Origin: Octopus vulgaris
Taxonomy: Eukaryota
Assembly (NCBI GenBank): GCA_951406725.2
Contig: OX597820.1
Coordinates: forward strand, 16,740,001 to 16,804,000
Length of the DNA: 64,000 bases
Direction of reading: 5' to 3'
In this document: positions 4,168 to 62,900 of the stretch, piece after piece
Layout of the letters: each line of letters starts with the position of its first letter
How positions within the stretch are numbered: the first letter of the stretch is position 1
Notes under the pieces: generated by a model
What the model was told of the DNA's origin: nothing
Seen by the model: the letters and a program-made list of their open reading frames with translations, nothing else
The model's database searches: none
Position numbers and translations under genes: made by a program

Positions 4168-4349
4168 AGTGAAAAATGTATTAATGTATGCATGCAAGTT
4201 TGTATGTATGCATGCATATGTATGCTTGTATAGACACGCATACACACACACACATACACACACATATTTGAATGTAGATATATACGTGTGTGTGTATGTA
4301 TGTAGATATTATATCTATATCTTATATATGTGTATATAGTTGAGATCTA

Positions 4350-4485
4350 TAGAAAAACAAAAGACGAAGACAGGTGTAGGAACAACAAGCAGGTGTATTA
4401 GTTTGACGCTCGGGAAAAGGAAAAGGTCTTTTACGTTTCGAGCCTATGCTCTTCAACAGAAAGGAACACGAGGAAATAAACAGAG
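4350..4485 (-). mobile_element. Short repeat with hammerhead-shaped motif (putative Penelope-like pLTR remnant), copy 1
   Basis: Homologous to 6960-7100, 36435-36575 and 62641-62685; minus strand CTTT-CTGTTGA-A-GAGC-ATAG-GCTC-GAAAC-GTA-AAAG. Confidence 0.6.
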
Positions 4486-4692
4486 AGAGAGAGAAAGAGA
4501 GAGAGAGAGAAAGAGAGAAAGAGAGTGAAAGAGAGAGAGAGAAAGAGGAAGATAGATAGATAGAGAGAGAGTGTGAGAGAGAGAGAATGAAAAAACTTGT
4601 AGATTATATAAATACATACATGCACATATATATATGTGAATGTATATATGCATATTTCGAGATGACAATTTTTTCTTGCCAAATATATGTAT

Positions 4693-5231: not shown

Positions 5232-5462
5232 TTTTCTTTATTGCCCACAAGGGGCTAAACATAGAGGGGACAAACAAGGACAGACAAACGGATTAAGTCG
5301 ATTATATCGACCCCAGCGCGTAACTGGTACTTATTTAATCGACCCCGAAAGGATGAAAGGCAAAGTCGACCTCGGCGGAATTTGAACTCAGAACGTAGCG
5401 GCAGACAAAATACCGCTAAGCATTTCGCCCGGCGTGCTAACGTTTCTGCCAGCTCGCCGTCT
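5232..5462 (-). mobile_element. SINE family B monomer (tRNA head, GTCGACTTTGCCTTTCATCCTTTCGGGGTCGAT central domain)
   Basis: Head GGCGAGCTGGCAGAAACGTTAGC, B-box GAGTTCAAATTCC; possible TSD TATACC. Confidence 0.9.
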
Positions 5463-5493
5463 TATACCTACCTACATAGTGTGTGTGTAAGTG

Positions 5494-6959: not shown

Positions 6960-7100
6960 TGAAATTTACAGAAACGCAAAAGACGAGGACAAGTGTAAAA
7001 ACAACAAACAGCTGTATTAGTTTAACGCTCTAGAAGATGGGAAAGTCTTTTACGTTTCGAGCCTACGCTCTTTAACAGAAAGAACACAAAAATAAGCAAG
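6960..7100 (-). mobile_element. Hammerhead-shaped short repeat, copy 2
   Basis: Minus strand TCTTT-CTGTTAA-A-GAGC-GTAG-GCTC-GAAAC-GTA-AAAGA at 7083-7046. Confidence 0.6.
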
Positions 7101-10429: not shown

Positions 10430-10964
10430 TCTGTATATATATGTATATATATATGTGTGTGTGTGTATGTGTGTGTATGTGTTCGTGTGTGTGTGTGTGT
10501 GTGTGTGTGTATACTTAAAAGGTCACAACCGGACCTCAAAGAGAAGCCAGCTAAAATATGTTTGTAAATAAACAGGAAAATATACATGAATGCACACACA
10601 CACACACACACACACATACTTTCTCTTCTTCTCTTCCTCCCACCTCTGCCTCTTCCCCCTCTCTCTCTGTCTTTCTCCCCTCCTATGTTACGTATGCAAT
10701 ATATATACAACACAACCCTTCATAATTTAAGACTAATTCTCCAGCATGGCAGTCAATGCAGTAAAAAAAGATTTATTACAGCTGACAGCAGAAGGTGATT
10801 GGGAAACCAAATCGAGACAGATGGGGAAGTTTAAGAGTAAAGAAAGGAGGAAGGAGTTCGGGGAGCAGAGAAAGGGAGAGTCGAATGAGAGTGGCATAAA
10901 CGGATGGAGAGAAATCTTAATAAAAAAAGACGTCCATAACTGTGATAAATAGATGAATAGATAG

Positions 10965-16644: not shown

Positions 16645-16692
16645 GCGACTTAAAGTTTCGCAGACTCGTCAAAGGAACCTATTTCATCAGGC
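16645..16692 (-). ncRNA. Degenerate type I hammerhead-like motif
   Basis: Minus strand GC-CUGAUGA-A-AUAGGUUC..GAGUCUGC-GAAAC-UUUAA-GUC-GC; stem I only 2 bp, stem II wobble-rich. Confidence 0.45.
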
Positions 16693-19303: not shown

Positions 19304-19712
19304 ATAGGCGCAAGAGTGGCTGTGGGGTAAGTAGCTTGTCTACGAACCACATGCTTGCGGGTTCAGTCCCACTGCGTGGCACCTTGGGCAAGTGTCTTCT
19401 ACTATAGCCTCGGGCCGACCAAAGCCTTGTGAGTGGATTTGGTAGACGGAAACTGAAAGAAGCCCGTCGTATATATGTATATATATGTATGCGAGTGTGT
19501 ATTTGTGTGTCTGTGTTTGTCCCTCTAGCATTGCTTGGCAACCGATGCTGGTGTGCTAATGTCCCCGTTACTTAGCGGTTCGGCAAAAGAGACCGATAGA
19601 ATAAGTACTGGGCTTACAAAAGAATAAGTCCCGGGGTCGAGTTGCTCGACTAAAGGCGGTGCTCCAGCATGGCCGCAGTCAAATGACTGAAACAAGTAAA
19701 AGAATAAAAGAA
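19304..19712 (+). mobile_element. SINE family A, full length
   Basis: TAGGCGCAAGAGTGGCTGTG...GACTGAAACAAGTAAAAGAAT. Confidence 0.93.
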
Positions 19713-21535: not shown

Positions 21536-21568
21536 CAAATGTTTCGAGTTGAACTCTTCATCAGAGCG
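21536..21568 (-). ncRNA. Partial hammerhead-like core
   Basis: Minus strand CUGAUGA-A-GAGU-UCA-ACUC-GAAAC; stems I and III not convincing. Confidence 0.4.
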
Positions 21569-22259: not shown

Positions 22260-22677
22260 AAGGCGGCGAGCTGGCAGAAACGTTAGCACGCCGGGCGAAA
22301 TGTGTAGCCGTATTTCGTCTGCCGTTACGTTCAGAGTTCAAATTCCGCCGAGGTCGACTTTGCCTTTCATCCTTTCGGAGTCGATTAAATAAGTACCAGT
22401 TACGCACTGGGGTCGATATAATCGACTTAATTCGCCTGTCTGTCCTTGTTTGTCTCCTCTGTGTTTAGCCCCTTGTGGGTAGTAAATAAATAGGTATTTC
22501 GTCTGCCGTTACGTTCTGAGTTCAAATTCCGCCGTGGTCGACTTTGCCTTTCATCCTTTCGGGGTCGATAAATTAAGTACCAGCTACGCACTGGGGTCAA
22601 TATAATCGACTTAATCCGTCTGTCTGTTCTTGTTTGTCCCTTCTGTGTTTAGCCCCTTGTGGGCAATAAAGAAATAT
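22260..22677 (+). mobile_element. SINE family B dimer (head plus two 184-bp units) bounded by a 19-bp TSD
   Basis: ACGTTC at 22327 and 22511; ATATCCA(G/A)TATGTGCCTTA at 22241-22259 and 22678-22696. Confidence 0.93.
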
Positions 22678-22929: not shown

Positions 22930-23557
22930 GGTTTCAAATTTTGGGACAAAGTCAGTAATTTTAGAGGAGAGGGTAGACCGATTACATCGACCCAGTGCAC
23001 AACTGGCACATATTCTATCGATCCCGAAACGATGAAAAGCAAAGTGGACCTCGGCAGAATTTGAACTCAGAACGTAGCGGCAGACGAAATACCTATTTCT
23101 TTACTACTCACAAGGGGCTAAACACAGAGGAGACAAACAAGGACAAACAAACGGATTAAGTCGATTATATCGACCCCAGTGCGTAACTGGTACTTATTTA
23201 ATCGACCCCGAAAAGATGAATGGCAAAGTCGACCTCGGCAGAATTTGAACTCAGAACGTAACGGCAGACGAAATACCGCTAAGCATTTCGCCCGGTATGC
23301 TAACGATTCTGCCAGCTCGCCGCCTTAGGTAAGGGAGAAATATCTTTTCTACTATAGGCATAAGACCTAAAATTTCAAGGGAGGGGAGTCGATTACATCG
23401 ATCCCAGTGCTCAGCTGGTACTTATTTTATCGACCCCCGAAAGAATGAAAGGCAAAGTCGACCGCGGTGGAATTTGAACGCAGAACGTAACGGCAGACGA
23501 AATACGGCTACGCATTTCGCAAGGCGTGCTAACGTTTCTGCCACCTCGCCACCTTAA
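22930..23557 (-). mobile_element. Cluster of family B SINEs (184-bp-period multimer to 23326, then a monomer)
   Basis: CAGAACGT at about 23070 and 23254; heads end at 23326 and 23556. Confidence 0.9.
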
Positions 23558-30817: not shown

Positions 30818-31581
30818 TACTCTTTTACTCTTTTTTACTCTTTTACTTGTTTCAGTCATTTGACTGCGGCCATGCTGGAGCACCACCTTTTAGTACTTAT
30901 TCTATCGGTCTCTTTTTGTCGAACCGCTAAGTGACGGGGACCTAAACACACCAGCATCGGTTGTCAAGCAATGCTAGGGGGACAAACACAGACACACAAA
31001 CACACACACATATACATATATATACATATATACGACAGGCTTCTTTCAGTTTCCGTCTACCAAATCCACTCACAAGGCATTGGTCGGCCCGGGGCTATAG
31101 CAGAAGACACTTGCCCAAGATGCCACGCAGTGGGACTGAACCCGCAACCTTGTGGTTGGTTAGCAAGCTACTTACCACACAGCCACTCCTGCGCCTACTC
31201 TTTTAATTGTTTCAGTCATTTGACTGCGGCAATGCTGGATCACCGCCTTTAGTCGAGCAAATCGACCCTCGGACTTATTCTTTGTAGGCCTAGTACTTAT
31301 TCTATCGGTCTCTTTTGCCGAACCGCTAAGTTACGAGGACGCAAACACACCAGCATCGGTTGTCAAGCGATGTTGGGGGGACAAACACAGACACACATAT
31401 ATACATATATATACATATATACGACGGGCTTCTTTCAGTTTCCGTCTACCAAATTCATTTACAAGGCCTTGGTCGGCCCGAGGCTATAGTAGAAGACACT
31501 TGCCCAAGGTGCCACGCAGTAGTACTGAACCCGAAACCATGTGGTTGGTAAGCAAGCTACTTACCACACAGCCACTCCTGT
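30818..31581 (-). mobile_element. Two tandem SINE family A copies (30818-31196, 31197-31581)
   Basis: Two complete tail-to-head reverse copies. Confidence 0.92.
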
Positions 31582-31614: not shown

Positions 31615-32420
31615 TTGTTAGTACCCCGGGTAAAACGCCTTTTCTGCGTTTCTACTGGCGCTTTACGTTCTGAGTTCAAATTTCGCCGAGGTTGACTTTG
31701 CCTTTCATCCTTTCGGGGCGGATAAAATAAATTCCAGGTGAACACTGGGGTCGATATTATTAATTTCCACGCCCCTCAGAATTGCTAGCCCCGTGCCGAA
31801 AATTAGAAAGAATTATTATTACTAAGGCGGCGAGCTGGTAGAACCGTTAGCACGTCGGGCGAAATGCGTAGCCGTATTTCGTCCGCCGTTACGTTCTGAG
31901 TTCAAATTCCGCCGAGGTCGACTTTGCCTTTCATCCTTTCGGGGTCGATTAAATAAGTACCAGTTACGCACTGGGGTCGATATAATCGACTTAACCCGTT
32001 TGTCTGTCCTTGTTTGTCCTCTCTGTGTTTAGCCCCTTGTGGGTAGTAAAGAAATAGGTATTTCGTCCGTCGCTACGTTCTGAGTTCAAATTCCGCCGAG
32101 GTCGACTTTGCCTTTCATCCTTTCGGGGTCGATTAAATAAGTACCAGTTACGCACTGGGGTCGATATAATCGACTTAACCCGTTTGTCTGTCCTTGTTTG
32201 TCCTCTCTGTGTTTAGCCCCTTGTGGGTAGTAAAGAAATAGGTATTTCGTCCGTCGCTACGTTCTGAGTTCAAATTCCGCCGAGGTCGACTTTGCCTTTC
32301 ATCCTTTCGGAATCGATAAAATAAGTACCAGTCAAACAATGGTGTCGAAGTAATCGTCTTATGCCCCCCCCCCCACACACACTGTCTATCATTGATAGCC
32401 TTGTACCAAAATTTGAAAAC
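31615..32420 (+). mobile_element. SINE family B monomer followed by a trimer (184-bp period)
   Basis: Head at 31824; ACGTTCTGAG at 31891, 32075 and 32259; units nearly identical. Confidence 0.93.
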
Positions 32421-36434: not shown

Positions 36435-36575
36435 TTCATTTTCTCTCCTTGTTGCTTTCTGTGTTCCTTTCTGTGGAAGAGCGTAAGCTCCAAACGTTAA
36501 AGACTTTCTCACTTCCCGAGCATTATACATCTGTTTGTTGTCTACACCACCTGTCTTCGTCTTTTGTGAATTCAC
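36435..36575 (+). mobile_element. Hammerhead-shaped short repeat, copy 3
   Basis: CTTT-CTGTGGA-A-GAGC-GTAA-GCTC-CAAAC-GTT-AAAG at 36467-36502, between (TA)n tracts. Confidence 0.6.
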
Positions 36576-39498: not shown

Positions 39499-40053
39499 GA
39501 GTGAGAGAGCAGTTCATGCCATCAAAGTGACACTGGGGTAAAATATACGAAGCCCAATATACCCATCATGACTACCCGTCTGATAAAGGTACACCAGGCA
39601 CATGCATCACAACCATATGTGCGCGACATGGTAATCTCATATCAAGATAAACAGCACATGACCTTGCAGGTGGGGCCCAGTTAGAATTTTCTTCAGGTTG
39701 AGTAGCCCATCCTGCTCAAAAGGTCCCTGAATAAGGGTTGCTTTAGGATGTTGAACGAAACACCTATGTTTCCAGAGGTGAATTATTCAAACTCCAAAGA
39801 ATCCCTCTCAACACATGGCCATGATGCTCCCCCACTACTTCTGCTCGTGATCAGAGATGCACGTATTGTCAGCCACTAAGGGACATGCTCAACTGGTTAA
39901 GGTCAAACAACTGACAAGCAAATTTGTGGTATTGAGCAGAATATCTGCTGTAACCCATCTTTTATACCAAGACAAAACAATGTACATGATAACACTTCCA
40001 ATCAGTTAAGATCAGAAGCCATGAGAGCCACTGCCTGGTACTGCATCAGGGCA

Positions 40054-40054
<1 letters not shown>
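39499..40054 (-). mobile_element. Non-coding TAA-embedded element of about 555 bp, copy 1
   Basis: Reverse complement of 40824-41393; (TAA)n on both sides. Confidence 0.85.
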
Positions 40055-40823: not shown

Positions 40824-41410
40824 ATGCCCTGATGCAGTACCAGGCAGTGGCTCTCTTGGCTTCTGATCTTAACTGATTGGAAGTGTTATCATGTACATTG
40901 TTTTGTCTTGGTATAAAAGATGGGCTACAGCAAATATTCTGCTCAATACCACAGATTTGCTTGTCAGTTGTTTGACCTTAACCAGTTGAGCTTGTCCCTT
41001 AGTGGCTGACGATAAGTGCATCTCTGACCACGAGCAGAAGTAGTGAGGGAGCATCATAGCCATATGTTGAGAGGGATTCTTTGGGGGTTTGAATAATTCA
41101 CCTCTCGAAACATGGGTGTTTCGTTCAACGTCCTTAAACAACCCTTATTCAGGGACCTTTTGTGCGGGATGGGTTACTCGACCAGAACAAAATTCTGACT
41201 GGTCCCCACCTGCAAGGTCGTGTGCTGTTTATCTTGATATGAGATCACCATGTCGCGCACATATGGTTGTGATGCATGTGCCTAGTGTACCCTTATCAGA
41301 CCGCGTAGTCATGATGGGTATACTGGGCTTCGTATTTATTATTTTACCCCAGTGTCAGAGACTTTGTGGATGGCATGCACCTGCACTCTCACTATAAAAT
41401 AAACTACTGA
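40824..41410 (+). mobile_element. Non-coding TAA-embedded element, copy 2
   Basis: ATGCCCTGATGCAGTACCAGG...CTCTCACT followed by ATAAAATAAACTACTGA(TAA)n. Confidence 0.85.
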
Positions 41411-62328: not shown

Positions 62329-62501
62329 AAGAAAAGGGAGGCAGTCAGGATTTTGGATAATTCTTTATTAGCGCTTTCGTTCGTTTAAACGGAATTCGGT
62401 TAAACGAACGAAAGCGCTAATAACGAATTATCCAAAATTCTGACTGCCTCCTTTTTCTTAATATACAATATCTGTACACTACACCAAACACACACACACA
62501 C

Positions 62502-62590
<89 letters not shown>

Positions 62591-62900
62591 CTCTCTCTCT
62601 CTCTCTCTCTCCCCACACACACACTCTCTCTCTCTCTACACACAGAATTCAAGTTTACAGTAAACAAAAGACGAAGACAGGTGTATATATCTCTCTACGT
62701 GTGCGTTTCTCTGTGTATGTGTTTGTTCTTCACCACCTCTTGACAACCGGTGTTGGTGTGTTTACGTTCCCGAAAATTAGCGGTTCGGCAAAAAAGACCG
62801 ATAGGCTTAAAAAAAGTCCTGGGGTAGATTTGTTCTACTGAAAGTTCTTCGAGGCGGTACCCCAGCATGGCCGCAGTTAAATAACTGAAACAAGTAAAAC
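62085..62900 (+). mobile_element. SINE family A split (head 62085-62230, tail 62700-62900) around inserted material
   Basis: Collinear halves. Confidence 0.75.
62327..62461. repeat. Near-perfect 135-bp palindrome bounded by TTAA
   Basis: TTAAGAAAAGGGAGGCAGTCAG..TTCGTTCGTTTAA / TTAAACGAACGAA..CTGACTGCCTCCTTTTTCTTAA. Confidence 0.93.

Follow-up and report, generated by a model that had tools for sequence, protein, structure and literature searches.

We identified, in the dominant lineage of a Penelope-like retroelement (PLE), a minimal type I hammerhead motif in which U has replaced the textbook A at core position 6. The motif appears to be a descendant and variant of the PLE minimal hammerhead that departs from the core at A6, and we treat it as a putative ribozyme. 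A pattern of the family with positions 6-8 left free had 19,428 exact matches in the host genome and none in the reversed control, so the family is not a product of chance.

Three copies of one repeat in the window

The window, that is, the whole 64-kb stretch analysed (C7:16,740,001-16,804,000), belongs to the microsatellite-rich, 2.8-Gb genome of an animal. We use the conventional hammerhead numbering and the accepted roles of G12 and G8. The three motifs reported in a preliminary description, with type I topology and the stems proposed there, were all found in the window sequence (Table 1). They are copies of one repeat, because they are 78-82% alike across 110-146 nt. All three have U6, as had been claimed for a three-copy variant, but only copy 1 has a core that is otherwise intact. 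Copy 2 has A for G8 at 7073, which breaks the C3-G8 pair, and copy 3 has C for G12 at 36491, both changes being decay. In copy 1, the predicted cut would fall between 4432 and 4431. The extra A of the core and the palindromic ACGU, also singled out in that description, are present, but both are ordinary features of PLE hammerheads and form no part of the novelty (PMC4209133, in part; here and below, 'in part' marks papers cited for a portion of their content). Among the 150 matches listed of the 455 in an Rfam scan, a list swamped by microsatellite matches, no hammerhead family appeared.

Table 1. Hammerhead motifs, element remnants and other repeats located in the 64-kb window
Feature	Position	Strand	Remarks
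Minimal type I hammerhead motif, copy 1	4428-4463	(-)	stem I CUUU/AAAG; core CUGUUGA+A; stem II GAGC/GCUC; GAAACGU-A; palindromic ACGU
Copy 1, single positions	C3 4459; U6 4456; H17=A 4432	(-)	G8; A9 + extra A; G12-A13-A14
Hammerhead motif, copy 2	7046-7083	(-)	core CUGUUAA; 5-bp stem I; U6 7075
Hammerhead motif, copy 3	36467-36502	(+)	core CUGUGGA; CAAACGU-U; U6 36474; N7=G; H17=U
5'-truncated PLE 3' end (pseudo-LTR remnant)	4339-4496	(-)	old subfamily group O; nearest consensus O3/O2/O1; 77-78% to the L154 unit
5'-truncated PLE 3' end	6961-7100	(-)	subfamily O1
5'-truncated PLE 3' end	36441-36570	(+)	subfamily TG; between (TA)n runs
Tail-only fragment of U6 PLE	62651-62685	(-)	without hammerhead
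Short old fragments matching 3' UTR and endonuclease region of U6 PLE	62471-62590; 10594-10644	(+)
Loose canonical CUGAUGA...GAAA matches	21538-21564; 16653-16690	(-)	21538-21564: short stem II, possibly a minimal hammerhead in decay
Dispersed SINE-like repeat, ~330 nt	5233-5464; 22260-22595; 22991-23328; 31822-32159; 32057-32332	both	91-94% identity
Inverted repeat pairs, 270-285 nt	19305-19588 / 30914-31197; 39789-40054 / 40824-41089		92-95%

U at position 6 as the family state

With G8 fixed and the common frame kept, the exact genome matches comprised 17,886 with U6, 309 with A6 and 532 with C6 or G6, the last class being mostly C among the 100 listed of the 532. U thus stands where the hammerhead core has A6 in 17,886 of 18,727 G8 matches, and the other six core positions (C3, U4, G5, N7, G8 and A9) follow the hammerhead consensus. 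Read by eye, the first 100 of the 19,428 matches had U in 94, A in 4 and C in 2 at position 6, and U in 41, A in 27, C in 22 and G in 10 at position 7. Similar proportions came from copies chosen without core selection. The flank-picked set consisted of the first 90 of 20,661 matches to a downstream 19-mer; 69 of them were in register, the other 21 being truncated or carrying indels, and U6 was present in 67 of the 69 (both A6 copies belong to the old group O3). A flank-only profile applied to 244 kb around the window recovered nine copies, eight with U6 and one with C6, and a broader core-unbiased set had U in 84, C in 2 and A in 1 (87 of 91 copies). Furthermore, every 3' end recovered from 50 endonuclease-selected loci had U at this position. 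The excess of U6 over A6 in the genome, its presence in nearly all flank-picked copies and its occurrence in near-intact copies with RT and GIY-YIG argue that U6 is not decay. The proposal that U6 is a family-level variant is therefore upheld, with no reversion to CUGANGA genome-wide.

Position 6 lies within two single contigs, X5 record 25 and X18 record 27, which bear two other organism labels and show no difference at that base. Variant tables of the sequencing contigs lack even the known N7 variation and so are silent on position 6. A metagenome pattern scan returned five matches, all in GC-rich surroundings and lacking both stem I and the palindrome, which were taken as chance. A second CUGUUGA family in the genome (U in 41 of 42) was not accepted as an independent type I hammerhead with U6: it lacks a type I stem I, has a competing hairpin and belongs to a HERO/NeSL-like LINE of the R2 superfamily, of which it forms the 3' end (L249-L278, e.g. 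L250 ~1430-1545). GAAAC and CUGAUGA boxes are found in this LINE end ~40 nt upstream of CUGUUGA. A natural A6U hammerhead family was not found in the literature searched; Lunse 2017 and part of the supplements and figures of Cervera 2014 lay outside that search, and an earlier mention there is possible.

Linkage to a Penelope-like element

The window motifs are 5'-truncated 3' ends of an autonomous PLE of the Neptune type. Longer copies contain an endonuclease frame upstream of the motif, and a search with 142 aa as query yielded 16,582 candidates, of which the 150 scored were 90-100% identical. A frame of 1047 aa (L139) includes DKG, YGRYIDD, a CxxxxCxxC linker and YIGQT, and is followed ~500 nt downstream by the hammerhead motif. 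Against Pfam it matched RVT_1 (E=1.3e-7) and, below the cut-off, GIY-YIG (E=0.007), and its database homologues carry PF00078 and PF01541; a shortened frame of 359 aa had no match in Pfam or PDB, RVT_1 being matched by the full frame. The single frame with RT and C-terminal GIY-YIG that distinguishes EN+ PLEs is thus present in L139 and in the homologues. A complete pLTR-ORF-pLTR unit of 4,285 bp (L154) has U6 in both of its motifs, pseudo-LTRs 96.7% alike over 512 nt and, as a tandem unit, a motif ~700 nt before the ORF. The linkage to an RT/GIY-YIG frame that the preliminary description had suggested looking for was accordingly seen in L139, in L154 and in the longer copies with the endonuclease frame.

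The tandem and inverted architecture and the 5' truncation of PLEs are evident in L154, in inverted pairs (L013/L014 and L074) and in the variable 5' ends of the copies. Copies end at (TA)n, in 64 of 93 cases 90-109 nt after 16.1, and in L154 the sequence at this usual end point leads on, across an AT-rich patch, to the 5' UTR. Such a continuation would suit an internal start of reverse transcription like the one demonstrated for Poseidon_Ac (PMC11167929, in part). The linker CSRPRCRTC fits the CX2-5CxxC layout of Neptune (PMC8557442 supplement, in part). Assignment to Neptune is nonetheless provisional, as it rests on motifs rather than on a tree including reference PLEs, and Nematis remains the alternative. 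Young copies (L139:1109-1312, L145, L097 and L101) lie beside 3' ends that belong to older subfamilies, in many cases in inverted orientation and with (TA)n between the two, a placement that suggests that earlier copies served as targets through their TA tails. The frame also stays open for 100-250 codons past the endonuclease, in a Pro/Ser/Leu-rich, CT-repeat stretch whose length varies among copies (L024, L139-L158).

Conservation of the motif and history of the lineage

Nine U6 subfamily consensuses, with a flank identity of 62-80%, were derived from 166 copies. Across them, 37 of 39 motif columns were unchanged, versus 106 changes among the 111 columns of the flanks, 59 of which varied, giving a Fisher p of 1.6e-10 that is overstated because the copies were mostly core-selected, the ladder of subfamilies was set by hand and homopolymers contribute noise. 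All seven motif changes fell at N7 (five) and H17 (two, A/U), the positions that hammerheads leave free in the core consensus of PMC7151607 (in part). With the rest of the motif fixed and changes confined to these two positions, the U6 fold appears to be still under selection. The same invariance was observed in the flank-picked set for eight of the nine groups, O2 having no copy there and TC one. Single flank-picked copies do mutate within the motif (16.2 G>A in 9/69, L2.1 G>A in 8/69, 15.2 C>T in 5/69 and G12>A in 4/69), and none of these changes, those at the CpG sites (16.2, L2.1 and G12) included, became fixed in a subfamily. G12, A13, A14 and the A15.1-U16.1 pair were invariant in the nine consensuses, where H17 was A or U and never G. 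Canonical hammerheads tolerate C17, and H17 is weak evidence because C17 is as rare here as G17 (C or G together in 357 of 17,886).

Between genome families, stem pairing is kept with other letters: C-G versus G-C at 2.4/1.4, and GAGC/GCUC versus GGAC/GUCC versus GGCUG/CAGCC in stem II. Stem covariation, on which the earlier proposal partly depended, can therefore be seen between the U6 lineage and the other hammerhead families of the genome but not inside the U6 lineage, where the stems are invariant. The palindromic ACGU is found in all subfamilies, with two motifs per tandem unit (L154), and such a palindromic stem III is predicted to permit a dimer.

Canonical CUGANGA motifs also occur in this genome (8,040 matches; 21 in the control), mostly in sister families that share stem II with the U6 lineage and have a loop of 3 nt, with GUUU/AAAY as stem I. 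Several canonical A6 minimal hammerhead families were noted (L220-L248 and L062:5766), including two same-stem-II sisters and one with a long stem II. A tree of 218 copies, calculated with positions 6 and 7, loop II and H17 masked, separates the A6 sisters from the U6 lineage, although many of its nodes are weak; 208 of the 218 copies were grouped, with 10 outliers left out. The U6 lineage forms a ladder: the old groups diverge by 13-19% from their consensus, the young ones by ~4%. Its relation to the A6 sisters lies in 3'-end similarity only, the flanks being 43-52% alike. Relative to these sisters, the outer stem I pair (2.4/1.4) went from G-Y to C-G, loop II from 3 to 4 nt, and 1.5-1.7 differ. 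Because the oldest group, O3, includes both A6 (2 of 5) and U6 on the remodelled frame, U6 probably arose later than the remodelling of stem I and loop II.

A proposed slowed ribozyme and its alternatives

Between the catalytic variant and the scaffold that the preliminary description offered as alternatives, we incline, with some reserve, to the view that the U6 motif is a slowed ribozyme, assisted by dimerization or by protein, with a predicted cut after H17. A tandem transcript would hold two motifs, and either the two copies would pair via the ACGU palindrome or a protein of the element would aid folding, leading to cleavage. Judging from other hammerheads, U6 would lower the rate and leave most of the RNA uncut and usable as a template. 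Reverse transcription would begin internally, in the AT-rich patch ~90-110 nt downstream of the motif, and would pass through an uncut or re-closed motif, which may be why nearly all long-enough copies keep the motif whole. U6 is also predicted to pair with A15.1, an arrangement that would shut the monomer and mask the palindrome. The predicted helix (U4.G16.2/G5-C15.2/U6-A15.1) had a U6:A15.1 probability of 0.23-0.98 in the nine U6 consensuses and of 0.00 in both A6 sisters. However, the shut monomer is offered as a conjecture, since any U at position 6 would give the same pairing, and the free N7 argues against strong selection for a U6-A15.1 helix. A model in which CUGUNGA is a functional, protein-switched ribozyme, its U6-A15.1 lock opened by the RT/EN protein or by a second copy so that cutting and circularization are timed, seems to us unlikely. 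If true, position-6 variants would be a recurrent and large class of PLE ribozymes missed by core-fixed descriptors.

Published activities bear on the slowed ribozyme in both directions. The natural A6C hammerhead cuts slowly yet detectably, at <0.1 per min, and prefers Mn (PMC3088659; PMC7151607, in part); the minimal hammerheads of PLEs react slowly, either as dimers or when stem III has been lengthened (PMC4209133, in part); and the hammerhead of Poseidon_Ac (PAc) cut only with protein (PMC11167929, in part). Counting against cleavage are the A6C rate, which in one context was 3.55e-6 per min at 0.3 mM Mg (PMC7151607, in part), and a mutational scan in which single and double CUGA-turn changes were poorly active, save a C3/G8 swap (PMC9901934, in part). 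In the PAc study, moreover, insertion in vitro was unaffected by hammerhead mutations, and the cut site was not represented among the read ends (PMC11167929, in part). The 5' junctions of genomic copies are uninformative on cutting because (TA)n microhomology dominates them. Among 36 distinct U6 places (first 100 matches listed, by eye), five lay at 1.1, three one base before, three one after and five at the UA of loop II, and 12 of 29 A6 sister places lay at AU three bases past the cut, with 2 of 29 at 1.1.

The poorly active CUGA-turn mutants and the dispensability of cutting for PLE insertion in vitro also favor a different reading, which we find doubtful but worth weighing: the U6 motif may be a non-cutting folded RNA (or DNA) that is recognized by RT/EN or pairs two transcripts, with the lineage spreading from uncut tandem RNA. 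Naiad PLEs are reported to spread without canonical hammerheads (PMC8557442, in part), the 69 of 90 flank-picked copies are intact across the cut site, loop II is invariant too despite being unneeded for chemistry, and U6 is predicted to make a stable rod fold. A non-cutting fold would leave N7 free as well, and this weakens the ribozyme reading. Yet G12, G8, G5 and A14 are fixed even though single copies do lose the CpG-flanking G12, N7 is free although U is the only base there that would add a pair to the rod fold, and natural position-6 variants keep some activity (PMC7151607, in part; PMC3088659).

At the other extreme, the remodelled stem I (C-G at 2.4/1.4 and an A-C-U extension) and the four-base loop II might restore normal activity and make an efficient new core. 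Such compensation would agree with the later invariance of all the stem I, loop II and 1.5-1.7 differences from the A6 sisters, with O3, whose A6 and U6 copies on the new frame place remodelling first, and with a U6 lineage that outnumbers canonical matches (17,886 versus 8,040). We nevertheless judge it very improbable: second changes never rescued CUGA-turn mutants in a pairwise scan of another hammerhead (PMC9901934, in part), and even with A6 the minimal hammerheads of PLEs cut slowly (PMC4209133, in part). Least probable of all is that U6 was a founder accident carried as dead cargo, its apparent conservation reflecting core-pattern sampling or coding constraint, with N7 in the third position of a valine codon (GTN). 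The input to the consensuses was indeed mostly core-selected, and one frame reads SVEERRLET with N7 at the wobble position. However, the flank-picked copies have the same invariance, and a coding constraint on the motif is ruled out by the stop of the SVEERRLET frame at H17 in seven of nine subfamilies, by the constancy of other four-fold sites and by the location of the motif beyond the ORF stop.

The U6 motif bears on the role of PLE hammerheads, which are slow in vitro and were dispensable for insertion in the one system reconstituted. The lineage is a natural experiment, in which a dominant element changed a textbook-invariant base and then fixed all other core and stem bases, N7 and H17 apart, through at least nine subfamilies. 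Canonical A6 sisters with the same stem II coexist in the same genome and are ready controls. If U6 hammerheads cut, the core consensus widens, and tens of thousands of motifs escape searches by descriptor; if they do not, the fold is selected for something besides cutting.

Comparison with known systems

The 2017 work of Lunse and co-workers reportedly ran to about 150,000 variants. Minimal hammerheads in the pseudo-LTRs of metazoan PLEs were described by Cervera and De la Pena (2014; PMC4209133, in part) and by Lunse et al. (2017, via PMC6765202, in part). The U6 motif shares with those of PMC4209133 (in part) the type I wiring, short stem I, G10.1-C11.1 pair and extra base between A9 and 10.1, as well as the loopless palindromic 15.2/16.2, the pLTR location and the tandem and inverted copies. 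It differs in that the master lineage has U at position 6. The portion of the text of PMC4209133 cited here names U3-A8 as the sole variant of the core, and the catalytic boxes were held constant in its descriptor; a term search of one of its supplement files turned up no CUGUNGA forms. A natural position-6 change is also known from the A6C hammerhead of phage Bcep176 (Perreault 2011, PMC3088659; Naghdi 2020, PMC7151607, in part), which has reduced, Mg-dependent activity. Unlike that single phage example with C, the change here is to U and is carried by a retroelement of a eukaryote, with ~18,000 exact matches and a history of at least nine subfamilies.

The element resembles PAc of Anolis (Frangieh 2024, PMC11167929, in part) in having AT-rich targets and a hammerhead upstream of what we infer to be an internal start of reverse transcription. 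PAc, however, belongs to the Poseidon clade and its motif overlaps the ORF start, whereas here the linker is of Neptune type and the motif lies ~700 nt before the ORF. Cleavage was demonstrated for PAc; for the U6 motif it is predicted. With the Neptune EN+ PLEs (Craig 2021, PMC8557442, in part) the element shares the single RT-EN frame, the CX2-5CxxC linker, the C-terminal GIY-YIG, the (TA)n targets and the pLTR tandem structure.
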